Shown here: positions 7,372-44,383 of the stretch, one piece after another
Numbering within the stretch: the stretch's first letter is position 1
How the letters are laid out: every line of letters begins with the position of its first letter
From: a virus
Taxonomy: Duplodnaviria; Heunggongvirae; Uroviricota; Caudoviricetes
Length of the DNA stretch: 64,000 bases
Direction: 5' to 3' (one strand)
IMG/VR virus record: IMGVR_UViG_2609459792_000007
Made by a program: the position numbers and the translations under genes
The notes under the pieces: model-generated
Databases searched by the model: none
What the model was told of the DNA's origin: nothing
Seen by the model: only the letters and a program-made list of their open reading frames with translations

Positions 7372-7620
7372 TTAAATAGAATTTTGAAGTTTTCCGATTA
7401 ATGCGCTTAAACGTAAGTATTCACGTTTGCGCTTGCAATCTCGCTTGCTGTTAAGCAAATCAGAAAACGTAAAATTTAATTGGTCGCGTTGCGCGATTAA
7501 ATCATCGATTAATTCTAGTTTATAAGCGCGATACTTTGCGCGATATTCCGCGCGGATCTTGTCATAGCTGACCATTTTCAAAGCTCCTTTAAAGCGCCCA
7601 TAGTGGGCGCTTGATTCCAT
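7372..7620 (-). CDS. hypothetical protein (start uncertain)
   Basis: ORF in AT-rich minus-strand block; K/R-rich. Confidence 0.4.
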   Translation of the reverse strand: MESSAHYGRFKGALKMVSYDKIRAEYRAKYRAYKLELIDDLIAQRDQLNFTFSDLLNSKRDCKRKREYLRLSALIGKLQNSI

Positions 7621-8274: not shown

Positions 8275-8558
8275 GATAATTTTTCCTTATGTAAATTTAA
8301 AATTTATTGTCGTTAGCGTCTTCGCTTTCGACGAGTTCAATTATCGATATGCGAAAAAAGATTGCAAGTGTTTTTTTTAAATTTTTTTGCAGGGATGAAA
8401 GTCCTAGAAATAAAAGCGAGATCGTCGAAGGTGTTCCCTAAATAAATAATTGATTGCGGCTTTAGACCTTATATATATTTAGGTTATTTGATTTGTAGAT
8501 ATAAAGAAGTGATGTGAAAAATAATAACCGGACTTAGCCGGTTATTAACCTTATAGAT

Positions 8559-8867
8559 TTATTGAACAGACTCTACAGCCTTACGATTGGTGTCAAATAG
8601 CGCATCAACGAACTGTGCCGATGACTCGCTAGATTCGCAATCCAACATTGCCCGTTCTTCATTTGCCACTTTCTTACACAGTTCCACATTCTCACCTATC
8701 GCTTTTCCTGCTTTTACGGCTGCCGAAAATTGATACATGCAAACTGATACATTCTGAGACGTTGAGCACACGTCATTCATCAGCGACTGAATGACAGGCT
8801 TATAGTCCATTGCATTTGCCGCAACTGAGCAAAGTAAAAATAATGGTGGTAACAATATCGATTTCAT
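8559..8867 (-). CDS. secreted cysteine-containing protein with N-terminal signal peptide
   Basis: MKSILLPPLFLLCSVAANA signal-peptide-like N-terminus; followed on minus strand by a terminator hairpin at 8523-8546. Confidence 0.55.
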   Translation of the reverse strand: MKSILLPPLFLLCSVAANAMDYKPVIQSLMNDVCSTSQNVSVCMYQFSAAVKAGKAIGENVELCKKVANEERAMLDCESSESSAQFVDALFDTNRKAVESVQ

Positions 8868-8870
8868 AAC

Positions 8871-9395
8871 TCAAAAAGGCAAAATTCGTTCAACCCAATC
8901 GAACAAAACAACTATTTTTCTACCGTTCTCGACACGTAGTGTAACCTGACAAGCATCTGCGCCTGCTGACACCCCCTCAATTTCACGGCCATCCGCCATG
9001 TACACCCTTATAGATTTGTTTGCTTTGTAGGCTTGGTTGCAAATTGCAAAAAAATCGCGGCGTGATGGCCGATTATCGACATAATCAGGGTGAACTGTTA
9101 GTCGACCTTTGAAATCGTGAGCGATACTGTCAACCACACCTGATTCAATTGTACTAATGCGTTCAAGTGGGAGCCTTATACGATTTTCTTTGTCAAAAGG
9201 GGCTGGGCAAAGGTCAACTTTGTTACGAGATGGCATGAGGCCATAAACGTACATGCAAAACGCCTGGCCATCTTCGAGAGTGACCCTTACAGGAATTTGT
9301 TCTCTGCGCCAGAACATCAGTAGTTTTTCAACGTTAGTGTAATCTCGCGGCCAGAGTTCAGCTTGGATACCGTAGGTAATATCTTTGGTTGTCAT
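8871..9395 (-). CDS. hypothetical protein
   Basis: ORF; likely start MTTKD at 9395 overlapping upstream stop. Confidence 0.5.
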   Translation of the reverse strand: MTTKDITYGIQAELWPRDYTNVEKLLMFWRREQIPVRVTLEDGQAFCMYVYGLMPSRNKVDLCPAPFDKENRIRLPLERISTIESGVVDSIAHDFKGRLTVHPDYVDNRPSRRDFFAICNQAYKANKSIRVYMADGREIEGVSAGADACQVTLRVENGRKIVVLFDWVERILPF

Positions 9396-9399
9396 GTCA

Positions 9400-9822
9400 T
9401 CACAGAGTTGTTGGCAGAATGTCGATGTCACCAGAATTGCTGGTGAACACCCTGAACGCTTTTGTGTCTCCATTCTTCAGAGTCGTTTCTCGCTCTTGAC
9501 GAGCGGGGTTTAGAGCACATAAACCTGCACCTTCAAGAGATGCACCCACAATTAATTCTCCGGCATTTAAATGGAAAGTCGCTTTTTCGCCTGTAGCCAG
9601 TTTTGCGACAGTTTCGCCATTGATGAAAATGGAAGCATCACATCCAGCTCCTACAAAACCTGTGTCTCTCATTACCACCAACGTAGCTGGCGCTGCGCTT
9701 TGATACTTGAACACTTTGGCCTGCGGTGCTGGTTTGGCGTCATGGATTGATATTGGACGTGATTGGCACGCGGTAAGCATCAACACTGGTAACGTTAGTA
9801 GAGGGAGAAGCGAGTATTTCAT
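9400..9822 (-). CDS. putative lipoprotein
   Basis: MKYSLLPLLTLPVLMLTAC: signal peptide with lipobox LTAC. Confidence 0.6.
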   Translation of the reverse strand: MKYSLLPLLTLPVLMLTACQSRPISIHDAKPAPQAKVFKYQSAAPATLVVMRDTGFVGAGCDASIFINGETVAKLATGEKATFHLNAGELIVGASLEGAGLCALNPARQERETTLKNGDTKAFRVFTSNSGDIDILPTTL

Positions 9823-9890
9823 GATAGTTTTAGAACAGAAAGTGAACAGTATGGGAGACTTCATCTTTGTCTCCCTAATTGATAGCGTGA

Positions 9891-10169
9891 TTATTTTAAT
9901 CTGCTTAATAGCGTTTCGAGATCTTCCTTTGTCATATTAGAGTTCTCATAGATACGCATGATTTTCTCACGAGTCTTAGCGGAAGCCCCGACAGAAGATA
10001 TAACCTTGTCAAAGTCGGCCATTGTCAATTGTTCCAGAATGGTATTTATGACTTCAGCCTTAGACATTTTGATATTTTTTTCTTTTAGTTTCACTTGAAA
10101 CTTTCCAAGTTTGTCATTGGCCTTATCAGACAATGCTACCTGACAGTAAGTTGTTTTCTTTTCACTCAT
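9891..10169 (-). CDS. hypothetical protein (92 aa)
   Basis: ORF directly downstream of helicase gene on minus strand. Confidence 0.5.
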   Translation of the reverse strand: MSEKKTTYCQVALSDKANDKLGKFQVKLKEKNIKMSKAEVINTILEQLTMADFDKVISSVGASAKTREKIMRIYENSNMTKEDLETLLSRLK

Positions 10170-10171
10170 AA

Positions 10172-11731
10172 CTAATCTCGTTTCAGAACTCCAAAATCGA
10201 ATGCTCCATCAATAGGCAATACACCTTCTGCAAAGCCAGGTGTGGTGTCGATGATGTGTTTTCGCTCATAAGAGTGAGACAACAGGTATTTGTTGCTAAT
10301 GTCAATGAAATCAGTGATAAAACACACGTTTGCCTGATTTTTTTTGGCTCGTAAGCCACGACCGACACGCTGTCTCATTTCAACTTCTGCTTTCCCACCA
10401 CCAGCAAGAATGACCGCACCAACGCTTGGCACATCAACACCAACATCCAGAATAGTCGAGCCTATTAAAACATCTATTTCACCAGACGCTAAACTATTCA
10501 GCTTTGCTTGCCTTGTCGTCTGGTTAGATTCCCCATAGATGAAATCAACTTTAAGACCTGACTCCTTCATCATCTCCATCAGGATTTGCCCGTGGCGTTT
10601 AAGACGAACCAGAGTCATGCAGTTGAGTGAATGTTGCTTATAAAGCAATGCCTCGCGCACTATGGCCTCGTTACGTCCCAAATTATACACGATCCCCAAC
10701 TGATAAGCCTTTTGGTAGGCGGTGCCCATACCAACTCTAAAATTGAGGTGTTTGTTGGCAAGTTCGGCCTTGATTCTGGCCTCGTCTGGCTTGTAGGCAA
10801 CTTTATGATAAAGGAAGTACGGCTTTGCCAGAATGCCTCGATCAATCAGGTACTTTTCTGTGACTTTAATTTCAATTCGCCCGGCCACCGCCATCAGGCG
10901 CATGTTGGCTTCCGTCGAATCCTTCATGAACGGCGTGGCTGTAAGCGCCAGACGATAGTCTGCGTTCACACATAATCTGGCAATGTCATAGAAATTAGAG
11001 CCTGAAGACTCATGCGCTTCTTCCAGAATAAGCAGAGACACACTTGAAAGGAAGCGTTTCACCAACTCCCGACGTTTGAGGTGGTAGCTCTTTTTATCTG
11101 GTGTTGCATCGCGTGGTGGTTCTTCAAGGAAACTTGCCAGAGTTTGAACTGTAGCGACGTTGATATGTCGTGATACCTGGAACTCACCCGAGCCAATGAC
11201 TCCAACCTTTTGGCCCTTTAACCACGGTTCGCCATTTTCGGCGCGGTAGTCGATGGATCTCTGGAAGTTTTCGGCCATTTGAAACATCAGAACAGAGCGG
11301 GTTGTTAAAAATAATGTCATTCGACCGATACGTGCAGCTGCTTTGCAGGCAACGTTAGATTTCCCGCCACCAGTAGCGATCTGCGCAATCATCATTCCCT
11401 CTCGAACCAGTGTTTCCACAGTCTGATCCTGATACGCATAATCAGGATTGTATGGGAATGGGTTAACCGCCGGATTTGGTTTACCAAGCGCCGGGGCTTT
11501 GTCTTTGCGGATATGAACACATTTGATGCCCGCCTTGTTCAAGTTCGCCGCTACAGGCTTGGCAAAGCCAGCAGGGAACGAGTTTTTACTCCAGTTGAAC
11601 ATCGTGCTTGTGCCCTTCCAGTCGCCAGTCTCGACTTCGTAGCTCAACATTTGCTGCACCAGTTGCTTTACCTTGTCATCTGCGCCAGAAATAAGCGCAT
11701 TTACTGCGTTAGATACAATCCGAACAGTCAT
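10172..11731 (-). CDS. superfamily 2 DNA/RNA helicase
   Basis: Walker A-like TGGGKS, motif II LILEEAH (DEAH-type), C-terminal helicase-domain-like region. Confidence 0.75.
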   Translation of the reverse strand: MTVRIVSNAVNALISGADDKVKQLVQQMLSYEVETGDWKGTSTMFNWSKNSFPAGFAKPVAANLNKAGIKCVHIRKDKAPALGKPNPAVNPFPYNPDYAYQDQTVETLVREGMMIAQIATGGGKSNVACKAAARIGRMTLFLTTRSVLMFQMAENFQRSIDYRAENGEPWLKGQKVGVIGSGEFQVSRHINVATVQTLASFLEEPPRDATPDKKSYHLKRRELVKRFLSSVSLLILEEAHESSGSNFYDIARLCVNADYRLALTATPFMKDSTEANMRLMAVAGRIEIKVTEKYLIDRGILAKPYFLYHKVAYKPDEARIKAELANKHLNFRVGMGTAYQKAYQLGIVYNLGRNEAIVREALLYKQHSLNCMTLVRLKRHGQILMEMMKESGLKVDFIYGESNQTTRQAKLNSLASGEIDVLIGSTILDVGVDVPSVGAVILAGGGKAEVEMRQRVGRGLRAKKNQANVCFITDFIDISNKYLLSHSYERKHIIDTTPGFAEGVLPIDGAFDFGVLKRD

Positions 11732-30611: not shown

Positions 30612-31343
30612 ATGTTAGCGCCTACTTATTTCAAGGATGAAACAATGGGAATTAAAGCTGATATTCAGAGCTTATCTCCCTCTGCACTCATTGAGTTGTT
30701 CGTACTGGATATGTCGAACACAACTTCAGGGGGGAAGTTATTCTTCCACGCCGGAACAAACGAACTGATGCAACCGGTCGTCTGGCAAGGAGTGACATAC
30801 GAGCCGTGGCCAATCAAAGCATCAGGCTTTGACAAAACTGGCCAGGGAACGTTGCCACGTCCAAAAATTCAGGTATCGAACTTTGCCGGAACCGTCTCTG
30901 CGGAAGTTCAGGCGAACGACGATCTTGTTGGCTGCCGCATTATTCGCAAGATGACGCTGGCTCGCTTCCTCGATGCCGTTAATTTTAAAGACGGCAACCC
31001 AACAGCAGATCCAAACCAACATTTCCCGGATGAAATGTGGTTTATCGAACAGAAAACTCTCGAAACTCATCAGGTTGTCGAGTTTGAATTGTCCAGTGTG
31101 TTCGATTTGATGGGGGTGCAACTGCCGTATCGTCAGATCATTAAAAACACCTGCCCGTGGAAATACCGAGGGCCAGAATGCGGCTATACCGGTCCATATT
31201 TCGACAAAAATAACCAGCAGACGTCTATGTCTGGTGCGGATTACTGCACAAAACGTTATGACGCCTGTAATGCGCGTCGGAATTATTTTGCCGACGGTGT
31301 GATCCATTTTGGCGGATTTATTGGAGCTACGCGGTATGGGTAA
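30612..31343 (+). CDS. minor tail protein (lambda L-like position)
   Basis: 243-aa ORF with several cysteines; start may be ATG 30645. Confidence 0.6.
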   Translation: MLAPTYFKDETMGIKADIQSLSPSALIELFVLDMSNTTSGGKLFFHAGTNELMQPVVWQGVTYEPWPIKASGFDKTGQGTLPRPKIQVSNFAGTVSAEVQANDDLVGCRIIRKMTLARFLDAVNFKDGNPTADPNQHFPDEMWFIEQKTLETHQVVEFELSSVFDLMGVQLPYRQIIKNTCPWKYRGPECGYTGPYFDKNNQQTSMSGADYCTKRYDACNARRNYFADGVIHFGGFIGATRYG

Positions 31344-32133
31344 TAAAGCAATCCCTGAGCTTGGCTCTGACGTTATGCAGCAAATCTATCTCTGCGCCAT
31401 AAATCGCTACCCTAATGAAGCGTGTGGCTTTCTGGTTAGAACTAATGGCGACAAATATCGCTTTATGGAAGCGCGGAATGTTTCGGAGAACCCGCAGAAC
31501 ACTTTTGTAATGCACGTTGACGACATTATGGCGGCAGAGGATGCGGGTGATGTTATCGCAATCTGGCATTCACATACTGATGAATCAGCAGAAGCATCTG
31601 ATGCCGATCGTGCAGGCTGTGAAGCGACGGAAGTTCCGTGGATGATTCTGGCTATTCGCAAGAATGTTGAGGGAGATGCCCCTTTCCATTTTAGCGAGAT
31701 GAATGTGATCACACCTGATGGTTTCGAAATGCCATACCTGGGCAGACCGTATGTATTTGGCGTATTCGATTGCTGGATGTTGTGTCGGGACTATTTGAAG
31801 CGTGAGTTTAACGTCAAACTAAACCCGAACGCACACCTGCATATTCCATCGTGGTACACCGGCGATAACGACATTCTCGATCAGAACTACCGAAACGAAG
31901 GATTGGTACGGCTTGCGCCCGGAACAGAACCTCAACGTGGGGACGTCTTCTTTATCCAATACGGAAAAATGCCTGACCACTGTGCGGTTTATATCGGCGA
32001 TGGAATGATTCTTCATCACCAGATCGACCGCCTTAGTTGTCGTGCTTATTACGGCGGGATGTATCAGAAACATACGACGCATCACTTGCGTCACAGAGAC
32101 TTGCTCAAGGGAGATGAGACGTGTCTGAGTTAG
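31309..32133 (+). CDS. tail tip assembly protein (lambda K-like; JAB/MPN plus NlpC/P60)
   Basis: JAB-like motif HSHTDESAEASDAD and Cys/His pair (DCWMLC ... HCAVYIGDGMILHH). Confidence 0.7.
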   Translation: MADLLELRGMGNKAIPELGSDVMQQIYLCAINRYPNEACGFLVRTNGDKYRFMEARNVSENPQNTFVMHVDDIMAAEDAGDVIAIWHSHTDESAEASDADRAGCEATEVPWMILAIRKNVEGDAPFHFSEMNVITPDGFEMPYLGRPYVFGVFDCWMLCRDYLKREFNVKLNPNAHLHIPSWYTGDNDILDQNYRNEGLVRLAPGTEPQRGDVFFIQYGKMPDHCAVYIGDGMILHHQIDRLSCRAYYGGMYQKHTTHHLRHRDLLKGDETCLS

Positions 32134-32722: not shown

Positions 32723-35700
32723 TTGGACATGGAACAGTTCAAGAAGAAAAAATTACCGCTTCTTATTGCCGGTGCTGGTGGCAAGAAAAGTAAAAGCTCC
32801 AGCCGTACCCCGGTTGAAGCTGATGATACTGTCAATTCTCGTGCTATGGCAGCCATCCTCGACCTTCTTGGCGAGGGGGTTATCGGTGGCCTGGTAAATG
32901 GCGCAAAGTCGATCTTCATCGACGATTTACCGATCTTGAATGAAGATGGCTCTTCCAACTTCAGCGGTATTACATGGGATTTTCGTGACGGCTCACAAGA
33001 CCAGACGCCAATGGCTGGTTTTGATTTTGTTGAAACGCCTAAGTCCGTAAATATTCAGCTTAAAAAAACACACGACGTTACGGTTTCAATCGATAACGAT
33101 GAAGCTGATCGCGTTCGTGTCATCATGAAATTCCCCTCTTTACGTAGCGTTGATAAAAGCTCTGGCGATACAAATGGCACTACGGTGAAGTACAAATTCC
33201 AGATCGCCAACGGAGACGCAACATTTTCTGATGTAGTGGCAGAAGGTGAGAAAAGCGTTGATATCACGCTAACGGCAAAGAAAACAGGCGTGTATTACCG
33301 TAGCTATGAGCTGAAACTACCTAAGCCTGGTCGTGCATACAAGGTTAGGGTGATTCGTCTTACAGATGATAACAGTAGCCAGTACCTCTACAACGACACA
33401 TGGGTTGATTCCATAGGTGAGATTGTCGACACGCCAATGAACTACCCTAACTCTGCTCTTGTTGGCTTGAAGGTCAATTCAGAGCAGTTTGGTAGCACAA
33501 TGCCTTCCCGTTCGTATTTGGTGCGCGGTATCAAAATCCGAGTACCGTCAAACTACAACGAATACACCAATACTTATGTCGGCGTATGGGACGGTACTTT
33601 TAAGCTGTTGTCTTCTTCAAACCCTGCGTGGATTCTCTACGATTTGCTTACCAATACTCGGTATGGTCTTGGGCAATTTGTGTCGGAATCCATGATTGAC
33701 CTCGGCCAGCTCTACCAGATTGGTCGATATTGTGACGAAGAGGTCGATGATGGCTTTGGGGGTAAAGAGAAACGCTTTGCAATCAATACGCAGATCACCA
33801 GTCGACAAGACGCATACCGATTAATTCAGGATATTGCCGGTGCATTCCGCGGCATGGTGTTTTGGGCTGGTGGCATGGTTAACATCATGCAGGATAGCCC
33901 ATCAGATCCGGTAATGATGTTTACCAACTCCAACGTCAAAGATGGACTGTTTACCTATAAAGGTTCTGCGCGTAAAGATCGCCCATCCGTTGCGCTCGTA
34001 ACCTACAACAACAAGGAGGACGGTTATAAGCAAAATATCGAGTACGTTGAAGATCAGGACGCAATGCGCCGTTATGGTGAGCGTAAAACAGAAGTCGTAG
34101 CATTTGGATGTACAAGCCGAGGCCAGGCTCACCGAGTTGGTTTGTGGCTTTTGTATACCGCCAGAATGGAGTCGGATGTAATTACATTTACTGCCGGCTT
34201 AGACGCCTCATTTCTGATGCCCGGTGAAACCGTTCTGATTCAGAACAAATATCGTGCAGGTAAACGTAACTCCGGTCGAATTGTGGAGTTTACCAAAAAC
34301 AGCATCACTCTCGATGCGCCTGTGTCGTTAGCTAAAAGCGGCAGCTTTATTCGGATATTGAATCAGGAAGGCAAAATCGTTGAACGTGATGTTCTTGAAA
34401 CTGGCGAAAACATAACAAAGGTTACGTTTTCAAAAGCTCTGTCGTCAGCGGAAACGCCTGTTTTGAACGGTGTCTGGACAATTACAGAACCAGATCTCGA
34501 ACCTATGCGCGTTCGCATCGTTAACATCGCGCAGGGGGAAACGCCGGGTAGCTTTGACATCACCGCTGTTGAGAACAATCCGTCTAAATATGAGGCAATC
34601 GACAATGGTGCAACGCTTATCCCGCAGAATACGACGGTATTGGACCCGACTTACTCTAAGCCATCTAATTTGCAAATCACTGAAGGGACTTATCTCTCAA
34701 GCCCGGGCAACCTGTCAGTAAAACTGACTGCAACATGGGAAGGAAAATCTCCAGAGTATTGGATCAGTTGGCGACGTTCTGATGAAAACAATGTATCGAA
34801 CTGGCAATCGGCGCGTGTAACCGAAGAGCAATACGAAATCGTTAATGTCGCGGAGAATGGACGCTACGACTTCCAACTGTATGCGGTTTCATTCAACGGT
34901 AAAAAAACAGAGATTATCAGTACCGTTTATCAGGTGTTGGGCACAATGACACCGCCGGATGCCCCAACGTCATTAACGGCCGTTGGAGACTATCGTAATG
35001 TGATACTGAATTGGGTTAATCCAGATTCGGTAGACCTTGATCACATTAATGTTTACGCATCCCAGACCAACAATCTGGATACGGCGAAACTGATCGCAGA
35101 GTCTGCAAGCACCACCTTTACACATGCTGGTCTTGGGGATAGCGAAACGTGGTATTACTGGGTTCGAGCATCGAACAAGCGAGGTATGTTAAGCCCTCCG
35201 AACTCAAACTTGGGTACAGAGGCGACAACTCGCGATGTACTGTCGTTCCTGGCTGGCAAAATTACATCTTCCGAGCTTGGTCAGGCTCTGCTTGAGGACA
35301 TCAACAGTAAAGCCTCTCAAGAAGCAGTTGACGAGTTAAATGAGCATATCAACCAGAGCGTCGAATCTTTGGAGGGGTCGGTAAACGACGTTAAGGAAGA
35401 TATAGCTGAATTAGATAAGCAGTTCAGCGATAACCTCGCGGGTTTTGAAATAAAATTCAACGAGCGTAGCGATGCTTTGGAGAACGCACAAACCGAGCTT
35501 AAAGGTGAGGTTTCGGCAACGATCGACAAGGTCAATGAAGCGTTTGAAAAAATTGATGCTACTGATGCTGCAATTGTTGAAATCGAAAACACCGTATCTG
35601 AACACGATAAAGCTCTCGCTAATACAGTCGAGGCAATAAAGGCTGCAAGAGACGAAGCGGCGGCTCTTATTGCTAAGGAAAGCGAGGCTCGTGTAGAAGG

Positions 35701-37453
35701 TGATGCCGCAAACGCTAAACAACTGGAAGTGTTGCAGTCGACGGTAGAGGAAAGTTCCGCAGCTGTTGAAGAAATGAAAAAGACGGTTGCAGAGGTCGAT
35801 CGTGCCAGTGCAGAACTGACTACGAACATTGAGGCGTTAGCCAAAACAAATATTGACCTGGCTCTTCGTCAAGATGAAGACCAGCACAAGCAGATGGTCA
35901 ATAACGCGAAGATCGCAACAACACAGAAAACCTTTGCTGATGATATGTCTGCAATGGCCACGAAGGTTGAGGAAATTCGCGTAGAAATTGGCGAAGACAT
36001 TAAGGCCAGTATTCTGGAAGAGTCCACCGCTCGTGCCGATGGCGATGAAGCGTTGGCAAAGCGTGTCACTCAGCTGCAATCTAAGTTTGAAGGAGATATC
36101 AGCGCGGCGATTAGTACAGAACAGGAGGCTCGTACATCTGCCGATGAAGCTTTGACGAAACAAATAACTCAGCTTGAGTCGAAAGTAAGCAACGATATTG
36201 TCGCAGCCATTAAGGAAGAGCAAGAAGCCCGAGCAACGGAAGATTCGGCTCTGGCAAGCCAGATCACCCAACTTCAGGCAAAAGTTGATGATGATATTTC
36301 TGCTGCAATACGCAGTGAGCAGGAGGCGCGTGCGAGCGGAGACTCTGCGTTAGCTAAACAAATAAACCAGCTTCAAGCAAAGGTTGACGGTGATATATCC
36401 GCCGCCATCACTCAGGAGCAGGAGGCCAGAGCAAGTGCTGACGAGGCGCTCTCACGAGAAATTAACAGCCTGCGGGCGCAGACCGGAACTGACATTGCCG
36501 CAGCCGTTGCTGTAGAGACAAAGGCAAGGACTGACGCCGATAGTGCATTGTCCAGCCAGATTACATCTCTTACAGCAAAAGCTAATGATCTCGAGGCGTC
36601 TCTTGCCAAAGAAACAACGGCTCGTGCAGATGGCGATACCGCTTTAACAAAAGAGGTTTCAAGTTTAAAAGCACAGACTGCGAAAGATATTAGTGCGGCC
36701 GTTGCAGTGGAAACGCAGGCTCGAACTGATGCTGACTCGGCGCTATCGTCTCAGATCACCAAGCTGACCTCTCAATACAAAGAGGATATTAAAGCGGCTG
36801 TAGCAACCGAAACGAAAACGCGTACAGAGCAAGATGCGGCACTGGCGACTCAAATCACAAACTTAGAGTCTCAAACAGCAGCCAACATTTCTGCGGCGGT
36901 CACAACTGAAACGACAGCGAGAACGCAGGCAGATAATGCACTAAGTGGGCGAATCGATACTCTGAAAGCAGAGGTGGATGGAAATACCGCGACAATTCAA
37001 CAGCAGGCAACAGCCATTGCTGATACCAACAAAAAAGTCTCAACCGCGTGGACGTTGAAAATGGAGACTTCAACGAGCGGAGGGCAGAAGTATGTTGCCG
37101 GTATTGCGCTTGGTATCGACACCACCGGTCTTTCTCAGTTTTTGGTGCAGGCGGACAGATTTGGTTTGGTCAACTCTGTTAACGGGAAGATCACCACGCC
37201 ATTTGTTATCGAAAACAGTATCGCCTATATGAATGGTGCGTATATCAAGGATGGCACAATCACCAATGCAAAAGTAGGCGATCTGCAATCTACCAATTTT
37301 GTTAGCGGTAGATCTGGATGGCGGTTCGGCAAAAATGGAACGCTTGAGATCAACGGTAATAGCGGCGGCAATGGGCGACTGGTCATAAATGGTCAGCGGA
37401 TTGACGTTTATGACGATAACAACGTCCTACGAGTAAGAATTGGCCTTCTGTGA
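32723..37453 (+). CDS. tail tip / host specificity protein (lambda J-like) with internal tandem repeats
   Basis: 1576-aa ORF after the M/L/K/I-like series; central block of about ten 33-aa repeats. Confidence 0.8.
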   Translation: MDMEQFKKKKLPLLIAGAGGKKSKSSSRTPVEADDTVNSRAMAAILDLLGEGVIGGLVNGAKSIFIDDLPILNEDGSSNFSGITWDFRDGSQDQTPMAGFDFVETPKSVNIQLKKTHDVTVSIDNDEADRVRVIMKFPSLRSVDKSSGDTNGTTVKYKFQIANGDATFSDVVAEGEKSVDITLTAKKTGVYYRSYELKLPKPGRAYKVRVIRLTDDNSSQYLYNDTWVDSIGEIVDTPMNYPNSALVGLKVNSEQFGSTMPSRSYLVRGIKIRVPSNYNEYTNTYVGVWDGTFKLLSSSNPAWILYDLLTNTRYGLGQFVSESMIDLGQLYQIGRYCDEEVDDGFGGKEKRFAINTQITSRQDAYRLIQDIAGAFRGMVFWAGGMVNIMQDSPSDPVMMFTNSNVKDGLFTYKGSARKDRPSVALVTYNNKEDGYKQNIEYVEDQDAMRRYGERKTEVVAFGCTSRGQAHRVGLWLLYTARMESDVITFTAGLDASFLMPGETVLIQNKYRAGKRNSGRIVEFTKNSITLDAPVSLAKSGSFIRILNQEGKIVERDVLETGENITKVTFSKALSSAETPVLNGVWTITEPDLEPMRVRIVNIAQGETPGSFDITAVENNPSKYEAIDNGATLIPQNTTVLDPTYSKPSNLQITEGTYLSSPGNLSVKLTATWEGKSPEYWISWRRSDENNVSNWQSARVTEEQYEIVNVAENGRYDFQLYAVSFNGKKTEIISTVYQVLGTMTPPDAPTSLTAVGDYRNVILNWVNPDSVDLDHINVYASQTNNLDTAKLIAESASTTFTHAGLGDSETWYYWVRASNKRGMLSPPNSNLGTEATTRDVLSFLAGKITSSELGQALLEDINSKASQEAVDELNEHINQSVESLEGSVNDVKEDIAELDKQFSDNLAGFEIKFNERSDALENAQTELKGEVSATIDKVNEAFEKIDATDAAIVEIENTVSEHDKALANTVEAIKAARDEAAALIAKESEARVEGDAANAKQLEVLQSTVEESSAAVEEMKKTVAEVDRASAELTTNIEALAKTNIDLALRQDEDQHKQMVNNAKIATTQKTFADDMSAMATKVEEIRVEIGEDIKASILEESTARADGDEALAKRVTQLQSKFEGDISAAISTEQEARTSADEALTKQITQLESKVSNDIVAAIKEEQEARATEDSALASQITQLQAKVDDDISAAIRSEQEARASGDSALAKQINQLQAKVDGDISAAITQEQEARASADEALSREINSLRAQTGTDIAAAVAVETKARTDADSALSSQITSLTAKANDLEASLAKETTARADGDTALTKEVSSLKAQTAKDISAAVAVETQARTDADSALSSQITKLTSQYKEDIKAAVATETKTRTEQDAALATQITNLESQTAANISAAVTTETTARTQADNALSGRIDTLKAEVDGNTATIQQQATAIADTNKKVSTAWTLKMETSTSGGQKYVAGIALGIDTTGLSQFLVQADRFGLVNSVNGKITTPFVIENSIAYMNGAYIKDGTITNAKVGDLQSTNFVSGRSGWRFGKNGTLEINGNSGGNGRLVINGQRIDVYDDNNVLRVRIGLL
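35990..36980 (+). repeat. about ten tandem 99-bp (33-codon) repeats inside the J-like gene
   Basis: Repeating EQEARxxADxALxxQITxLxxKVxxDISAAI units. Confidence 0.8.
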
Positions 37454-37546: not shown

Positions 37547-40500
37547 ATGTGGTACAGGGAAGGTACTATCACATTTACACAGGGTAGTAATACTCTGGTT
37601 GGGGTTGGGACAGCCTGGAACGTAACAGCTAATGGTGTGTTGCCGGGGATGATCGTCATTGGCCCCGACAATAAGCTGTATGAGATCAAGCGCGTAACAA
37701 GCGATACGAACATTGTTCTCTCAGAACCTTATACCGGTGAAACTCAGTCTGAAGTTCCGTGCCGAATCATTACTACCTATGAAGGCGACTTAACACAGTT
37801 TAGCGCGCGCTTTACCGCGCTAATGTCGCGTATGTCGGCTGATTCCAAGTCCATGCGTAGTTGGTTGACTGCTCTGGATGAGGTGACAATCGAGCGTGAA
37901 GACGGTACAGAAGTGACCGTTAAGCCGCTGATGCAGATCGTCAACGAGCACAACGAAAACGTTGAGTGGTATAAAAATAACACTGACGCGATTGATGCCG
38001 CTGGTGACAAAGCTCGTGAGGCGGCGGCCAGTGCTGCCGCAGCAGCAGAAAGCGCCAATACCGCTGGAGAAAAAGCATCTCAAGCGTCTCAAAGTGCATC
38101 CGCTGCGGCATCCTCACAAAGTGCCGCAAGTGCGAGTGCAACTGCTGCGAAAAAATCTGAAACGAACGCAGAATCAGCATATCTATCGGCAGCAGAATCA
38201 GCGTCTGTAGCGTCGACCAAAGCATCGGAGGCAGCAACATCTGCGTCCAGTGCCTCTGCATCTAAGGATGCAGCCAAAGCATCAGAGACTAACGCTTCAT
38301 CGAGTGCAAACGCGGCTGCATCATTTGCAACAGAAGCTGAAAATTCGTCTAAGGCAGCAAAAGCGTCAGAGACAAACGCAAAAGCATCTGAAACGGCAGC
38401 CGGGCAGAGTGCATCGTCTGCAAACAGTTCGAAATCTGCGGCAGAAGCGTCAGCAAGCGCAGCCTCAGCAAGTGCGGATAGTGCTTCATCAAGTGCAACT
38501 GCGGCAGGAAAATCTGCGGAAAGCGCGTCGTCATCAGCGACAACAGCTACCGCAAAAGCGACTGAGGCGACGAATCAGGCTACAGCTGCTAAAAATTCAG
38601 CATCGGCAGCAAAATCCTCTGAAACAAATGCAAAGGCTTCTGAAGATAATGCCGCTTCCTCTAAAGAGGCAGCTGCTGAATCTGCAAGTTCTGCGTCTGC
38701 ATCAGCCACCTCGGCATCTGCTTCAAAAGATGAGGCGACCAAGCAGGCATCAGCTGCGAAGGGGAGTGCTTCAACGGCATCCACGAAAGCAACAGAGGCG
38801 GCAGGTAGTGCGACGGCTGCATCTCAGAGCAAAGCTGCTGCTGAATCCGCTGCGACCCGTGCAGAAGCTGCCGCTGATCGTGCTGAAGAGATCGCCGGTG
38901 CAGTTGCGATGGAAGACGCAAGCCTTACCACCAAAGGTGTTGTGAAACTTAGCAGTGCTGTCGATAGCACCAGTGAATCGCTGGCCGCAACGCCAAAGGC
39001 AGTTAAAGCAGTCAATGACAATGCGAACAGCAGGGTGCCATCTAACCGAAAAATTAACGGGAAAGCACTGACTGCGGATATCACATTAACGCCGAAAGAT
39101 ATTGGTACTTTAAATTCAATAACGATGTCTTTCTCTGGCGGGGCCGGGTGGTTCAAACTGGCTACTGTTACAATGCCACAAGCGAGTTCCATCGTTTACA
39201 TCGCATTGATTGGTGGCGCTGGTTACAACGTCGGCTCCCCACATCAGGCAGGCATTTCAGAACTGGTTCTACGAGCAGGCAATGGAAACCCCAAAGGGAT
39301 TACAGGTGCTTTGTGGAAGCGTACAGCTGTCGGATTAACGAATTTCGCCTGGATCAACACATCCGGCGATACATATGATATTTACGTTGAAATTGGCAAT
39401 TATGCGACGAGTGTAAATATCCATTGGGATTGTACTGCAAATGCGTCAGTTTCTATTTATACATCGCCAACATATTCAGCGAGTAAGCCTTCCAGCGTTA
39501 CCGATGGTGTTGTTTATACGTTGTATAGCACACATCAGAAACCGACGCCGTTAGATATTGGAGCACTGCCAACAACCGGAGGAACAGTTTCAGGTCCGTT
39601 GTCTGTTACTGGTGGGATCACCGGAACATTAAATGGTAATGCAAGTACAGCAACGAAATTGCAGACGGCAAGATCTATCGGTGGAGTTGTTTTCGACGGT
39701 TCTGCAAATATTAACCTTCCAGGTGTAAACACTACGGGTAATCAGAACACCACTGGTAATGCTGCAACTGCTACAAAACTTCAGACGGCACGCACAATTG
39801 GCGGGGTAGCATTTGATGGCAGTGTCAATATCGACCTGCCGGGCGTGAATAAAGCAGGCAATCAGAGCACTACCGGCAATGCTGCAACCGCTACAAAACT
39901 ACAGACAGCGCGTACAATCAACGGTGTTAAGTTTGATGGTTCTGCGGACATAACGCTGACTCCTGCGAACCTTGACGTATACAGCAAAAGCGAAATAGAC
40001 AATAAAAAAGGGATGAGAAAATACACTTTTTCAGCGCCTGCAAATGCAGTAAGCGGTAAGTGGTATCCTATAGTCTTTCGCCGATCTGGAGGCAGTACCG
40101 ATGAATTAGCCTCACGAGTTGTGATAACTACTTATTCCTCAGCTGGCGGATACGCCATGAATAATTGTGAATTTAATGGGTTTGTTATGCCTGGCGGTTG
40201 GTCTGATCGCGGTTCATATGCGGCTGGTTTTTTCTCAATATATTCTACTGCTGAGCGAGCTATACACTCGATTATTTCAAGTGTGAAAGATGACGATTTG
40301 TGTAGTGTATTTTACGTTGAAGCCAGAGCATTCCCTATCAAGATATTTGCTGAGGAGGGCTTGAACGTAATTGTTCCAACGGCTGATTATGCAGTTGGTC
40401 AAACCACTTATAAGTGGGGGGCAACTGATCCTTTATCAGAAAGTACGAATGCACAGATAATTTTGGACTTTAAAAATGGACGAGGTTATTACTGTTCACA

Positions 40501-41704
40501 TCCATTTATTTCAAGTCTTTCAGGAAATGCTGCTACAGCAACGAAATTGCAGACTGCAAGAACTATCGGCGGCGTGGCCTTCGATGGATCTGCGAACATA
40601 AATTTGCCTGGTGTAAACACGGCAGGTAATCAGAATACAACGGGCAACGCGGCTACTGCTACGAAGTTGCAAACAGCGAGAAACATCAATGGTGTTAAGT
40701 TTGATGGCTCAGGCGATATCAACATTAATACATTGGTATCTCGTGGCCGAGTTACGGCGTTAAGCGGCTCTACTCAAGGCACTGCTGGCATTCAAATGTA
40801 CGAGGCGTACAACAATAGTTATCCGACCACGTATGGCAACGTATTGCACATGAAAGGTGCGAGTGCTGCTGGTGAGGGCGAGTTGCTTATTGGCTGGAGT
40901 GGTACGAGCGGTGCACATGCGCCGGTTTTCATTCGCTCCCGAAGAGATACCACTGATGCGGCATGGTCAGCGTGGGCGCAGGTATATACCGCTAAGGATT
41001 CAATCCCTGGTGTGAATACAACCGGTAATCAGAACACTACTGGTAATGCCGCAACCGCCACAAAATTGCAGACAGCAAGGAAAATTGCTGGTGTGGCGTT
41101 TGATGGCTCTGCCGATATTACTTTGACTGCGGCTAACCTTAATGCTTACACGAAAACAGAGGTAACAAACCTTCTAAGTTCCTATGCAAGCAGATCATCA
41201 CTGACAGGCTATAGTGGCAACCTGGATATTATTGCTGAAACACTGGTTGTCAAATCAGGCGGTAGTGGAGGGTTTGCTATATGGGATATTGGCACAACTA
41301 CTAGCGGTGCCAATATGTACATTGATCCAAACCCAGGTATCAATACAGTTTGGCGTTCAACATCTTCAAGGCGCTATAAAAAGGATATTGAAACATTACA
41401 AGATCGATATGCTGATGAACTTTTGTCATTAAGACCTGTTTGGTATCGTTCAATTTGTCGAGGTGACCGAAAGGATTGGGGGTATTACGGCCTTATTGCT
41501 GAAGAGGTTGGTGAGATTGCCCCGCAATATGTCCATTGGCGTGAACCAACAAATAATGATTCTCCAGAAGATATTTCCTCCAATGGTATGGTCGCTGAAG
41601 GAGTGATGTATGAACGTTTGGTTGTACCACTCATTCATCATATTCAGCAATTGACCAAAAGGGTTGAGGAGCTTGAAAAGAAGTTAAATTCACCTAAAGA
41701 ATAA
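37547..41704 (+). CDS. long tail fibre with C-terminal intramolecular chaperone (peptidase S74-like)
   Basis: 1385 aa; Ala/Ser-rich segment; repeats NTTGNQNTTGNAATATKLQTAR; C-terminus ...DWGYYGLIAEEVGEIAPQYV... typical of autoproteolytic chaperone domains. Confidence 0.8.
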   Translation: MWYREGTITFTQGSNTLVGVGTAWNVTANGVLPGMIVIGPDNKLYEIKRVTSDTNIVLSEPYTGETQSEVPCRIITTYEGDLTQFSARFTALMSRMSADSKSMRSWLTALDEVTIEREDGTEVTVKPLMQIVNEHNENVEWYKNNTDAIDAAGDKAREAAASAAAAAESANTAGEKASQASQSASAAASSQSAASASATAAKKSETNAESAYLSAAESASVASTKASEAATSASSASASKDAAKASETNASSSANAAASFATEAENSSKAAKASETNAKASETAAGQSASSANSSKSAAEASASAASASADSASSSATAAGKSAESASSSATTATAKATEATNQATAAKNSASAAKSSETNAKASEDNAASSKEAAAESASSASASATSASASKDEATKQASAAKGSASTASTKATEAAGSATAASQSKAAAESAATRAEAAADRAEEIAGAVAMEDASLTTKGVVKLSSAVDSTSESLAATPKAVKAVNDNANSRVPSNRKINGKALTADITLTPKDIGTLNSITMSFSGGAGWFKLATVTMPQASSIVYIALIGGAGYNVGSPHQAGISELVLRAGNGNPKGITGALWKRTAVGLTNFAWINTSGDTYDIYVEIGNYATSVNIHWDCTANASVSIYTSPTYSASKPSSVTDGVVYTLYSTHQKPTPLDIGALPTTGGTVSGPLSVTGGITGTLNGNASTATKLQTARSIGGVVFDGSANINLPGVNTTGNQNTTGNAATATKLQTARTIGGVAFDGSVNIDLPGVNKAGNQSTTGNAATATKLQTARTINGVKFDGSADITLTPANLDVYSKSEIDNKKGMRKYTFSAPANAVSGKWYPIVFRRSGGSTDELASRVVITTYSSAGGYAMNNCEFNGFVMPGGWSDRGSYAAGFFSIYSTAERAIHSIISSVKDDDLCSVFYVEARAFPIKIFAEEGLNVIVPTADYAVGQTTYKWGATDPLSESTNAQIILDFKNGRGYYCSHPFISSLSGNAATATKLQTARTIGGVAFDGSANINLPGVNTAGNQNTTGNAATATKLQTARNINGVKFDGSGDININTLVSRGRVTALSGSTQGTAGIQMYEAYNNSYPTTYGNVLHMKGASAAGEGELLIGWSGTSGAHAPVFIRSRRDTTDAAWSAWAQVYTAKDSIPGVNTTGNQNTTGNAATATKLQTARKIAGVAFDGSADITLTAANLNAYTKTEVTNLLSSYASRSSLTGYSGNLDIIAETLVVKSGGSGGFAIWDIGTTTSGANMYIDPNPGINTVWRSTSSRRYKKDIETLQDRYADELLSLRPVWYRSICRGDRKDWGYYGLIAEEVGEIAPQYVHWREPTNNDSPEDISSNGMVAEGVMYERLVVPLIHHIQQLTKRVEELEKKLNSPKE

Positions 41705-41764: not shown

Positions 41765-42019
41765 ATGAGCTATGGTGCACAGGTTTGGTCGCCATCAAGA
41801 CAGGAGATGGTCGATGCGTTGGCCCCTGTTTATTACCTCGATTATTTTACTCCCTCTGGTTCTGGAAGTAGAACATATGAGGTTGAGGCGGGATTGGGAA
41901 TCGACTATTACATAATGGACGTAACCAATGGGAAATACACAAGTCTTACGGTTTCTGGAAATACCATTTCATGGTCTGGAGCTAGTGGCAATTTAAACAT
42001 ATTGGTTTTTCAAAAATAA
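41765..42019 (+). CDS. hypothetical protein (84 aa)
   Basis: AT-rich ORF after fibre gene; RBS aaggatatatttATG. Confidence 0.5.
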   Translation: MSYGAQVWSPSRQEMVDALAPVYYLDYFTPSGSGSRTYEVEAGLGIDYYIMDVTNGKYTSLTVSGNTISWSGASGNLNILVFQK

Positions 42020-42627
42020 TGTACGGAAGCAAGATATATCGATCTGACGGGAAGGTCTGGATGTCTCCTTCTTTGTCTCCTATCGTTTTTCAGAGAAAGC
42101 AGGTTGTTTCTTTGTCTGGCGGGACAGAGTTTAACACCCAAATATCTCCAGATCGTTCACCGATGATTTTTGTTGCCTATTCGAAAGCTGTTTCATTAAT
42201 AGCCAACAGAATAGTGCGTAACAACCAGGTGATTTACAGTTTCGGAGGTCAGGGTAGCGACTCTAGTGCCACGATATACGTATTTTCGAAAGGTATAGCC
42301 AAAAAAGAAACTTGGGGCATGAGTTTTTTCAATGCGCGAGGAGAGGAGATCTATAATACGGCAAATATCCCACTTTCATTTACCTTTCTTAATAATACGG
42401 AGTGGAACAGTTCTGGAGGGCATGTTTTTGATTACCCGCCAGCGATAATCCCAACATATGCAAATGTGTTCGCGGTTCCAGTACCGGGCGGGGCCATGAC
42501 AATGGTTTATGGATATGCGGCATATGGAAATACTGTTAGTTCCATATTCGTAAACCAACTTAATGGCGGCCATAGTTTTAGCGTAAATGGCAGAGTACCG
42601 GTAATAAATAGAAATCTGTATAACTGA
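42019..42627 (+). CDS. hypothetical protein (202 aa)
   Basis: AT-rich ORF coupled to upstream gene. Confidence 0.5.
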   Translation: MYGSKIYRSDGKVWMSPSLSPIVFQRKQVVSLSGGTEFNTQISPDRSPMIFVAYSKAVSLIANRIVRNNQVIYSFGGQGSDSSATIYVFSKGIAKKETWGMSFFNARGEEIYNTANIPLSFTFLNNTEWNSSGGHVFDYPPAIIPTYANVFAVPVPGGAMTMVYGYAAYGNTVSSIFVNQLNGGHSFSVNGRVPVINRNLYN

Positions 42628-42637
42628 TGAGTAAACG

Positions 42638-42868
42638 ATGAAAAGATTATTTCTAACAATAGCTGTTGTTCTCTCTCTTACTGGCTGTCAGAAATTGCCG
42701 ACACCCATATGTTATGGTGAGGCTATCATTGGTGGACAGGAGACAGTCATACCTATATATGCTGTTAAAAAGGTTAACGGCTATACCTTATACAAAGCGG
42801 GTAGCATCTATAACTGGCGATGGGTTGGAGTAGGTGCTTTCTCATCAGTGCGTTGCAATGCTGAATGA
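42638..42868 (+). CDS. small lipoprotein
   Basis: MKRLFLTIAVVLSLTGC: signal peptide with lipobox LTGC. Confidence 0.6.
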   Translation: MKRLFLTIAVVLSLTGCQKLPTPICYGEAIIGGQETVIPIYAVKKVNGYTLYKAGSIYNWRWVGVGAFSSVRCNAE

Positions 42869-42888: not shown

Positions 42889-42949
42889 ACAAAAGGGTGA
42901 AATGTGATATAAATCCGCCATCCCGATTTGACTTTTCATGGAGGAAAAC

Positions 42950-43273
42950 ATGTCGAACGAGATGGCGGGCGTTACAACAGAGCAAGTTGAGCGTATTGCC
43001 GCGATCGTTGCTCGGGAGGTTGTTGGCAAATTAGGTAAAGAGCTACGTGAAGAAATTGGCCAGGAGGTCAATGATCAGCTGAAAACCTACTTTGGTGATA
43101 TGACCCCGGCGCAACATAGTATTCAACACTCCAATCTGGACAAACTCCTTAACCGGTTAGATTCCATCTCCAGTGGGTTCTTTGGCGGCATTGTTTCTAA
43201 AATAACGTCGTTCATTATTACCGCACTGCTTTTGGGGTTAGCCGCGTATGGCGTAAAAAATGGACTGCAATAA
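42950..43273 (+). CDS. putative holin-like membrane protein
   Basis: Single C-terminal hydrophobic helix (ITSFIITALLLGLAAYGV); first gene of lysis cluster; start uncertain (42938 or 42950). Confidence 0.4.
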   Translation: MSNEMAGVTTEQVERIAAIVAREVVGKLGKELREEIGQEVNDQLKTYFGDMTPAQHSIQHSNLDKLLNRLDSISSGFFGGIVSKITSFIITALLLGLAAYGVKNGLQ

Positions 43274-43286
43274 CAGGAGATCAAGG

Positions 43287-43979
43287 ATGAAGACTCCGAG
43301 AGGCATTCGTAATAATAACCCCGGTAATCTTGATAAAGGATCACCGTGGCAAGGTCTGGTTGCGAATCCAGACGAACCGCGTTTTTGCACGTTTAAAGAC
43401 CCTGTTTGGGGGATTCGTGCGCTGGCGGTGACTCTAATTACCTACCACGACAAACGTCGCGCAAAAGACGGCTCAAGTATCGATACCATTCGTGAAGTTA
43501 TTGAACGTTGGGCACCGCCGAATGAAAACAACACTGACGCCTACATTAATGAGGTGTCTAAAGCCGTTGGTGTAACCGCAGACATGATCATCGATCTGCA
43601 TGATTACGACATCCTTCGACCTTTGGTTGAGGCAATCATTCGCCACGAGAATGGCCGGGGTCCGCTAAAAACGCTGAACACCTGGTATGCGGCAGAAGTT
43701 ATTGAGGAAGGTCTGCGTCGAGCTGGCGTTGTTAAGCCGGTGAAAACCGTGAAGGCTGTTCCTGTAACTAAAGAAACAGCAGGCGCAACTGTTACAGCAG
43801 GTATTGGTCTGGCGCAACTGGCCGATGTTATGCCGCAGGTTTCCGCTGCTATGGATAAGGCACAAGGCCATATCTCTAGCGGGGATACAGTACGCATCAT
43901 CTTCGGTATTGCCACTATTGTTGTGGCCGGATTCATTGCCTGGTCGCAGGTAAGAAAACACCAGAAAGGGATGGTCTAA
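43287..43979 (+). CDS. putative endolysin with C-terminal membrane anchor
   Basis: ATG 43287 with RBS caggaga; position between holin-like and spanin genes; C-terminal hydrophobic helix; catalytic class not assignable. Confidence 0.45.
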   Translation: MKTPRGIRNNNPGNLDKGSPWQGLVANPDEPRFCTFKDPVWGIRALAVTLITYHDKRRAKDGSSIDTIREVIERWAPPNENNTDAYINEVSKAVGVTADMIIDLHDYDILRPLVEAIIRHENGRGPLKTLNTWYAAEVIEEGLRRAGVVKPVKTVKAVPVTKETAGATVTAGIGLAQLADVMPQVSAAMDKAQGHISSGDTVRIIFGIATIVVAGFIAWSQVRKHQKGMV

Positions 43980-43980
43980 T

Positions 43981-44232
43981 ATGCTAGGCAGCCTGATGAC
44001 AAAGCTAAAAGTTGCTTTGATTACGCTGGCTGCCGTTCTTTTCGTTCTGGTCGGCGCTTACACGATGGGCGGGAATGCAGCACGACGAGCAATGGAAGAG
44101 AAGGCAAAACAGGAAGACAGAAAACGACTTCAAAGCACAGTGGACGTCAAAAATGAAACACTTGATGAGTTACGGCGCAAGGATGCTTCTTCTGTTCATC
44201 ATGAGTTGCACAATAAGTGGTTGCGTGATTAA
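43981..44232 (+). CDS. i-spanin (Rz-like)
   Basis: N-terminal TM helix then charged periplasmic region. Confidence 0.6.
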   Translation: MLGSLMTKLKVALITLAAVLFVLVGAYTMGGNAARRAMEEKAKQEDRKRLQSTVDVKNETLDELRRKDASSVHHELHNKWLRD

Positions 44233-44383
44233 GCCTCAACCCGCTGGTGTGCTTTTCTGCGATGCGGCTACACCGCTATACATCAGCCGTGATGATCTCA
44301 TGACCGAAGAGACTGAAAGAGAGGTGCTTTTTCACAATATGATAGGGGAGCGATTGTGTGGATGGGGCAGAAAAGTACCATAA
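44153..44383 (+). CDS. o-spanin (Rz1-like lipoprotein), overlapping i-spanin in another frame
   Basis: MKHLMSYGARMLLLFIMSCTISGC lipobox; begins inside i-spanin gene. Confidence 0.55.
   Translation: MKHLMSYGARMLLLFIMSCTISGCVIKPQPAGVLFCDAATPLYISRDDLMTEETEREVLFHNMIGERLCGWGRKVP

Follow-up and report, generated by a model that had tools for sequence, protein, structure and literature searches.

Predicted envelope proteins flank an FljA-like protein in a three-gene operon of an Escherichia coli SSU5-type phage-plasmid

The IMG/VR virus record IMGVR_UViG_2609459792_000007 (Caudoviricetes), a stretch of 64,000 nucleotides (nt) referred to here in its entirety as the window, contains an operon in which the genes for two predicted exported proteins, a 140-amino-acid (aa) lipoprotein and a 102-aa secreted protein (sec102), lie on either side of a gene of the FljA family. 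The window was 99.5% identical to Escherichia coli plasmids of ~110 kilobases (kb) and 79.6% identical to Salmonella phage SSU5, identities that assign it to the SSU5-type phage-plasmids of E. coli. The interpretation tentatively favoured here is that the exported proteins act in the envelope of the carrier cell for the benefit of the resident element, with the lipoprotein most likely hindering the entry of other phages. At this stage, what has been found amounts to two accessory phage envelope genes of an ordinary kind, uncharacterised and already listed in databases as 'putative lipoprotein' and 'putative periplasmic protein'.

The operon occupies positions 8559-9822 on the minus strand, where the genes follow one another in the order lipoprotein, FljA-like protein, sec102 (Table 1). 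The stop codon of the lipoprotein gene is separated by 4 nt from the start of the FljA-like gene, whose own stop lies 3 nt ahead of the sec102 start, and the three genes form one operon that ends at one terminator. In relatives without sec102, the terminator hairpin is found directly 3′ of the FljA-like gene. For the promoter, the only evidence was a weak match to the consensus (9 of 12 positions) at 9919-9890; the terminator is clear. The operon is located in the early/plasmid region, across two ParB-like genes from the block encoding terminase, portal and capsid. A previous sequence-only reading of this interval had described one open reading frame (ORF) with a cleavable signal peptide and several cysteines and a second with a clear lipobox. 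Both could be assigned to genes with exact ends, 8559-8867 and 9400-9822, respectively; the third gene, at 8871-9395, by which the two envelope genes are joined into one operon, had been missed.

For sec102, the predicted N-terminus (MKSILLPPLFLLCSVAANA followed by MDYKP) carries a lysine at position 2, a 14-residue hydrophobic core (ILLPPLFLLCSVAA) and A-N-A at positions -3 to -1, directly before Met20, which are the features of a Sec signal peptide cut by signal peptidase I, in which a positively charged n-region precedes a hydrophobic core of about 10-15 residues and the cut follows small residues at -3 and -1. The mature protein would comprise 83 aa and contain four cysteines, Cys34, Cys43, Cys64 and Cys77. 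As with the lipoprotein below, the export signal was assigned by motif rules plus conservation. Among homologues with 65-88% identity, the signal region varied in sequence, with the hydrophobic n-h-c layout and an A/S-x-A site kept throughout; Cys34, Cys43 and Cys64 were invariant, and Cys77 was present in 7 of 8. A Klebsiella allele with ~26-30% identity likewise kept both the signal peptide and the four-cysteine pattern. From these features it is predicted that sec102 should be released into the periplasm, where the four cysteines can form two loop-closing disulfides. An AlphaFold2 model consisted of three helices, with a mean predicted local distance difference test score (pLDDT) of 73.

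Database searches with sec102 gave a match to phrog_9536 (annotated as of unknown function; E = 5.8e-55) that covered positions 1-83 of 83 and involved the mature part only, and no match in Pfam (E <= 0.1), NCBIfam or PADLOC. Homologues formed only 12 clusters; those with a named source were all from Enterobacteriaceae, and many were encoded on contigs of ~105-115 kb. Wherever the genomic context was read, the gene stood after the FljA-like gene. Judged by this distribution of homologues, sec102 is an orphan restricted to SSU5-type plasmids.

The lipoprotein begins with MKYSLLPLLTLPVLMLTAC, followed by QS, and contains the lipobox L-T-A-C with Cys19, which fits the consensus [LVI][ASTVI][GAS]C for substrates of signal peptidase II. 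Cleavage would leave a mature protein of 122 aa. Under the Lol rule, Asp at position +2 is the signal for retention in the inner membrane; with Gln at +2 and no Asp retention signal, sorting to the outer membrane is expected, and the protein should be lipidated and held at the periplasmic face of that membrane. Cys19 was invariant in 49 of 49 family members (28-60% identity), and the Cys61/Cys102 pair was conserved in at least 90%. The protein matched phrog_890, labelled 'lipoprotein', with E = 9e-52 over profile positions 6-136 of 136. An AlphaFold2 model was all-beta and of low confidence (pLDDT 53), on the basis of which the mature lipoprotein is predicted to be a beta-sandwich tethered to the outer membrane. 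The envelope location proposed in the sequence-only reading is well supported for both proteins by conserved export signals; superinfection exclusion, which that reading also put forward, is plausible.

Proportions of non-synonymous (pN) and synonymous (pS) differences were 0.14-0.21 and 0.53-0.77 for sec102 and 0.07-0.30 and 0.44-0.89 for the lipoprotein. Because pN is far below pS, the two are, by this measure, real genes under purifying selection and not chance ORFs. Amino-acid change in both was 2-4 times faster than in the neighbouring helicase and a 216-aa gene. The lipoprotein gene and its pECOH89 counterpart are 100% identical.

There are two candidate start codons for the lipoprotein. 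The conserved ATG at 9822 has no Shine-Dalgarno sequence, unlike the ATG at 9864, which is preceded by a strong one (Table 1). Initiation at the latter would add 14 residues to the signal peptide, to give a 154-aa precursor with an unchanged mature protein; the 154-aa form is the one annotated by NCBI in a near-identical plasmid, and the 14-residue extension is absent or not conserved in other lineages. The upstream ATG may be the true start in this lineage. In SSU5 and pMT1, a terminator-like hairpin is found between the 92-aa gene and the lipoprotein gene (L001 6085-6110, minus strand; equivalent in L006), with an 11-bp stem in SSU5. In the window this hairpin is absent, replaced by the sequence that creates the strong Shine-Dalgarno sequence and the ATG at 9864.

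The middle gene encodes a protein that matched the whole of PF03614 (profile positions 1-170 of 170; E = 1.5e-84; 282.4 bits against a cut-off of 24) and phrog_1444 (E = 1.9e-100). A weak Hfq-like match was seen at residues 120-162. In Salmonella, FljA is a post-transcriptional repressor of fliC, and an Hfq-like stretch would fit RNA binding; the protein of the window is cytoplasmic and, to judge from these matches, probably RNA-binding. Unlike Salmonella FljA, it is encoded on a phage-plasmid, where no flagellin gene is linked to it. The gene is kept in plasmids of Klebsiella (311 records) and Yersinia pestis (62 records), organisms that make no flagella. Because of this conservation in plasmids of non-flagellate hosts, flagellin mRNA is probably not the main RNA target. 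A search of the window for sequence resembling the E. coli fliC leader gave chance-level matches only (best E = 0.35), and the closest chromosomal match that was sought as a flagellin-linked FljA relative (P0275) proved to be an integrated SSU5-like element rather than a flagellin locus. The probable role of the FljA-like protein is to regulate how an RNA target is translated; in many hosts this target would not be flagellin, and it may be the operon itself. That plasmids of hosts lacking flagella keep the gene suggests that these elements possess a regulator, as yet unstudied, that acts at the level of RNA.

Matches to the interval occurred in ~784 plasmid records, most of them through the FljA-like part alone, which by itself was matched in ~780. 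At least 80% of the 1.38-kb interval, a coverage for which all three genes are needed, was matched by 145. The sec102 gene was found in 259 plasmid records, from E. coli, Klebsiella, Salmonella and a few others, and the lipoprotein family in 421, including Salmonella Typhi pHCM2 and Y. pestis pMT1. The FljA-like gene is a conserved core flanked by two variable slots. Both envelope genes are present, replaced or absent among otherwise collinear relatives, which is the pattern by which morons are recognised.

The slot upstream of the FljA-like gene held a lipoprotein gene in every arrangement examined but one, a divergent SSU5-like element integrated in an E. coli chromosome. The 140-aa type was found in the window, SSU5, pMT1, Citrobacter and Enterobacter. 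In Klebsiella, the slot contains a 145-aa lipoprotein of the same family (26% identity; hhalign 99.8%, E = 1.7e-28) on the opposite strand, and because a relative of such low identity is inverted with respect to its neighbours, the sequences indicate that this slot was refilled or inverted rather than slowly diverged. Cyrano and pRM9131-1 carry in the same place an unrelated 266-aa lipoprotein with Asp at +2, for which retention in the inner membrane is predicted, with a 188-199-aa cytoplasmic gene beside it. A Salmonella variant has an additional 185-aa gene in the upstream slot. The downstream slot contained sec102, or a divergent allele of 99 aa that shares its signal peptide and four-cysteine pattern (hhalign 86%, E = 4.7e-6), or nothing. 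Presence and absence of sec102 differ by an exact stop-to-stop indel of ~312 nt (window 8559-8873 versus L001 5098-5100 and L006 3040-3042), and with or without the gene, the sequence that follows and its terminator hairpin are unchanged. The occurrence of one envelope gene is independent of that of the other.

The lipoprotein family extends well beyond these plasmids. When the family profile was searched against 1.84 billion representative proteins, 1162 clusters were obtained at E <= 0.001 and 444 at E <= 1e-10, nearly all of ~140 aa. Relatives were placed on genomes by means of the contigs encoding individual family members, and where placement was possible, members of phrog_890 stood at accessory positions of temperate phages. 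Between gpK (JAB + NlpC/P60) and gpI/gpJ, they were found in mEp390, CharmingMan, phiAH14a, Pseudomonas aeruginosa phages and three uncharacterised contigs (two assembled from sequencing runs, the third part of an NCBI genome assembly); the mEp390 relative is gp17, annotated as similar to the pMT1 lipoprotein. In HK639, the relative follows the tape-measure gene and lies beside a YafO toxin gene, and another is found at a prophage end, after a P2-type gene D. In Vibrio phage P2, it is located 16 nt downstream of a cI-like repressor gene on the same strand; the 25 Vibrio anguillarum phage records (H20-like group) with this gene are near-identical, and family membership was established by hhalign (99.8%). 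Further relatives stand beside a type IIG restriction gene, a KilA-N/P63C gene and a weakly Lit-peptidase-like gene, and one lies in a chromosomal islet with integrase remnants. On one contig, 4 nt are shared between the relative and a gene whose product combines a zinc ribbon with a PF14373 superinfection-immunity domain (E = 2.6e-15); on two more, a small membrane protein with a zinc ribbon is encoded just upstream. In a set of short contigs, a lipoprotein relative is again found near a PF03614 gene. This family-wide pattern of positions is a useful lead and not a surprise.

Known families were then compared with the two exported proteins. For the lipoprotein at 9400-9822, the Cor family (phrog_1119) was rejected, as the protein matched only phrog_890. 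T5 Llp was rejected because the family profile, searched against the Protein Data Bank, aligned with 8a60_B over nothing but the signal peptide (positions 1-18; E = 0.36); in the same search, no match to Rtp45 was obtained. T4 Spackle was rejected by sequence, with no match in the Protein Data Bank or Pfam. A Pfam scan at E <= 0.1, in which DUF2846 was the sole match for the lipoprotein and sec102 had none, led to rejection of Bor, TraT and Lom. DUF2846 itself was rejected as well, the lipoprotein scoring 18.1 bits (residues 45-92) against a cut-off of 34.3. Among 49 family members, 11 matched DUF2846 (best E = 1.5e-05), and no score shown reaches the cut-off. Proteins of DUF2846 are, like the lipoprotein, small, beta-rich and exported; the family has no known function, so a link to it is uninformative on role. 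The one solved protein that had this label has been reassigned to DUF4360 by its authors (PMC10792529). Protein Data Bank sequence searches gave no relatives of any of the three operon proteins, and PADLOC gave no defence-system match for them. Fold searches returned generic matches only, including one of the lipoprotein to the LecB (PA-IIL) type lectin fold, which at 10% identity and from a low-confidence model (pLDDT 53) is a lead only.

T4 Spackle (gp61.3) is a periplasmic inhibitor of the tail lysozyme, made as a ~100-aa precursor with a Sec signal peptide, and is small, helical and disulfide-containing; sec102 is similar in precursor size, Sec signal, cysteines and predicted helical form. 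HK97 gp15 is reportedly an accessory gene product, encoded within the tail gene cluster, that excludes superinfecting phages. Both HK97 gp15 and T4 Imm are inner-membrane proteins that block phage DNA entry, whereas the protein considered here is a lipoprotein with a soluble predicted beta-sandwich and has no Imm-type gene adjoining it in the window; the link to Imm is through the one relative whose gene overlaps the PF14373 gene. In kind, the predicted 140-aa lipoprotein resembles Cor (phi80, N15, HK022, mEp167), Llp (T5) and Rtp45 (Rtp), small phage-encoded outer-membrane lipoproteins that face the periplasm and exclude superinfection. Each has a disulfide and is produced by the cell during infection or lysogeny, and their genes are accessory and often located in or beside tail genes, as are those of the lipoprotein relatives (PMC9586334, PMC12685063). 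The differences are that no sequence relationship exists, that the mature lipoprotein is ~13 kDa rather than ~6-7 kDa, and that its gene lies in the early/plasmid region and not beside a receptor-binding protein gene.

The window also encodes exclusion, lysis and receptor-binding proteins of its own (Table 1). N15 gp22- and gp23-like genes (phrog_557, phrog_425) directly follow the side tail fibre gene and are themselves followed by a Cor-family gene (41765-42868, plus strand). Cyrano has a J-like tail-tip protein 97.3% identical to that of the window but lacks both the lipoprotein and sec102. In CMS-2020a, the lipoprotein and sec102 are 99-100% identical to those of the window, and the side tail fibre matches over only ~39% of its length. 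In the side tail fibre of the window, the N-terminal 40% matches Cyrano and CMS-2020a at 94%; further out, similarity is to fibres of P1, Goslar, 9g and P2-like phages (60-80%).

Table 1. Positions of the operon, of its neighbours and of other features referred to in the text. Positions without a prefix are those of the window; an L number precedes positions in compared loci.
Feature	Position	Strand	Remarks
140-aa lipoprotein precursor gene	9400..9822	-	ORF, lipobox, phrog_890
Lipobox L-T-A-C, residues 16-19	9766..9777	-	Cys19 is the predicted lipidated first mature residue; Gln at +2
Possible alternative lipoprotein start	9823..9875	-	ATG 9864-9862; Shine-Dalgarno GGGAGA at 9875-9870; 5-nt spacing
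174-aa FljA-family protein gene	8871..9395	-	Pfam PF03614 (Flag1_repress, 'repressor of phase-1 flagellin')
sec102, 102-aa secreted (periplasmic) protein gene	8559..8867	-	ORF and motif analysis
sec102 signal peptide, residues 1-19	8811..8867	-	Predicted cut after Ala19, between ANA and MD
Intrinsic-terminator-like hairpin, operon end	8522..8547	-	10-bp stem then T run, 12 nt past sec102 stop
92-aa upstream gene	9891..10169	-	phrog_1466; no export signal; same direction as operon
DEAD-box helicase gene	10172-11731	-	Upstream; transcribed in same direction as operon
J-like tail-tip protein	32723-37453		97.3% identical in Cyrano
Side tail fibre	37547-41704	+	Mosaic
Cor-family 76-aa lipoprotein	42638-42868	+	phrog_1119, E = 7.8e-30
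Lysis cassette	42938-44383	+	Possible holin phrog_5093; endolysin 43260-43979 phrog_873
i-spanin; embedded o-spanin	43981-44232; 44075-44383	+	phrog_1026, phrog_1275; o-spanin lipobox ISGC
Klebsiella opposite-strand lipoprotein relatives	L004 4037-4474; L005 3685-4122	+	Same slot
Unrelated 266-aa lipoprotein, Cyrano/pRM9131-1	L002 4614-5414; L007 3664-4464	+	Asp at +2
Zinc-ribbon membrane-protein contexts	L017 5555-6004; L012 861-1379; L018 537-959		Zinc ribbon C-terminal

In the mechanism that we tentatively favour, the lipoprotein and sec102 would serve the resident element from the envelope of the carrier cell. The lipoprotein would hinder other phages from entering, either at the outer membrane or just beneath it, working like Llp, Cor and Rtp45 but as an unrelated, larger beta-sandwich; for sec102, a possible action is to inhibit infection at a periplasmic stage, as T4 Spackle does, and this is the weakest step of the proposal. 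Exclusion is favoured for the lipoprotein because its relatives are found in repressor operons and in accessory slots of tail clusters, one of them coupled to an Imm-type gene. The position of both envelope genes in variable slots beside a conserved gene also speaks for it. Several points weigh on the other side. By sequence comparison, neither exported protein is homologous to a known exclusion family, and the element already has what its sequence identifies as a genuine Cor-type exclusion lipoprotein after the tail-fibre genes. If the element's own receptor were masked, co-variation with the receptor-binding proteins would be expected; neither envelope gene tracks these proteins in the three genomes compared. 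Because the two envelope genes occur independently, sec102 and the lipoprotein would not need to act together. No literature on either exported protein was found. Finally, the lipoprotein is intact in Y. pestis pMT1 (62 records), as well as in S. Typhi pHCM2 and in the chromosomal islet beside integrase remnants, and retention in pMT1 and the islet is explained equally well by a general benefit to the host.

Such a benefit is the basis of an alternative in which the genes would be conversion genes of the Bor or TraT kind, providing serum or complement resistance, tolerance of envelope stress, or adhesion, and favouring upkeep of the plasmid in a way unrelated to other phages. A family of 1162 clusters is far wider than any single phage group, and the failure of the lipoprotein to co-vary with tail receptor-binding proteins is in line with this; no Bor, TraT or Lom match came from the Pfam scan, nothing was found on virulence or fitness, and positions in tail clusters and next to a superinfection-immunity gene are more typical of anti-phage functions. 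We consider host benefit rather unlikely. The tail-cluster positions can also be read in terms of the cell wall. Downstream of gpK, the tail-tip cluster contains the lipoprotein gene in eight or more lineages of phages or prophages, with nothing in between in several of them, and sec102 is predicted to be Spackle-like in size and general form, as might be expected of periplasmic inhibitors or immunity proteins directed against wall hydrolases (NlpC/P60 of the gpK type, tail lysozyme, or host or animal lysozyme) that protect the cell or block wall penetration. Neither the Protein Data Bank nor Pfam yielded a sequence match to Spackle, MliC, PliC or Ivy, and the gpK gene of the window (31309-32133) is far from the lipoprotein gene, so that this role is regarded as improbable.

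The middle gene suggests a further possibility, namely that the operon is a joint motility module in which the FljA-like protein stops translation of flagellin and the envelope proteins act on the flagellar apparatus, hiding the cell from flagellum-dependent phages or from host immunity. Translational coupling of a full-length PF03614 gene to both envelope genes, and the recurrence of a lipoprotein relative linked to a PF03614 gene in the unrelated short contigs, would be consistent with this, as would the grouping of the SSU5 o-spanin with that of the flagellotropic phage Chi (PMC6139136). The idea is nevertheless very doubtful: the FljA-like gene is conserved in plasmids of the non-flagellate Klebsiella and Y. 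pestis, the envelope genes come and go independently of it, and nothing in the window significantly matches the E. coli fliC leader. That the exported proteins serve lysis or virion assembly, with the lipoprotein acting for example as an o-spanin, is already contradicted and can practically be set aside. Its sole point in favour is that phage lipoproteins are often o-spanins. SSU5 is listed by Kongari et al. with a two-component spanin system, in the spanin group of phage Chi (PMC6139136), and a spanin pair is present in the lysis cassette of the window (43981-44383), 34 kb from the lipoprotein gene; the lipoprotein is a predicted 122-aa beta-sandwich rather than a short proline-rich peptide, and its gene is absent from functional relatives such as Cyrano.

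Hindrance of phage entry by the lipoprotein, should it be borne out, would have consequences beyond this element. It is conceivable, but unlikely in our estimate, that the lipoprotein represents a new and widespread class of prophage exclusion protein (a ~13-kDa beta-sandwich, phrog_890, at least 1162 clusters) that is unrelated to Llp, Cor and Rtp45; that temperate phages of Enterobacteria, Pseudomonas and Vibrio encode in tail-tip clusters and in repressor operons, in some cases with an Imm-like membrane protein as partner; and that in SSU5-type elements belongs to an operon whose translation is set by an FljA-type protein repurposed from flagellin control. If the family does act in exclusion, it would join the short list of understood receptor- or entry-blocking proteins, and an unannotated gene that keeps recurring in tail clusters across many temperate phages would have an explanation. 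Clinical E. coli, Klebsiella, Salmonella and Enterobacter commonly harbour SSU5-type phage-plasmids, which bring resistance genes with them, and effects of these elements on the envelope influence which phages, therapeutic ones included, infect their hosts.

Two observations were made on genes around the operon. The upstream DEAD-box helicase gave PbeA-like matches in the PADLOC defence library (best E = 1.2e-22). On the other side, an 82-aa ORF at 7372-7620 (minus strand) matched phrog_6145, 'MIT family metal ion transporter', and its SSU5 homologue is annotated as CorA. Because the encoded protein is short and basic and has no hydrophobic segment, the metal-ion-transporter label looks wrong from its sequence.

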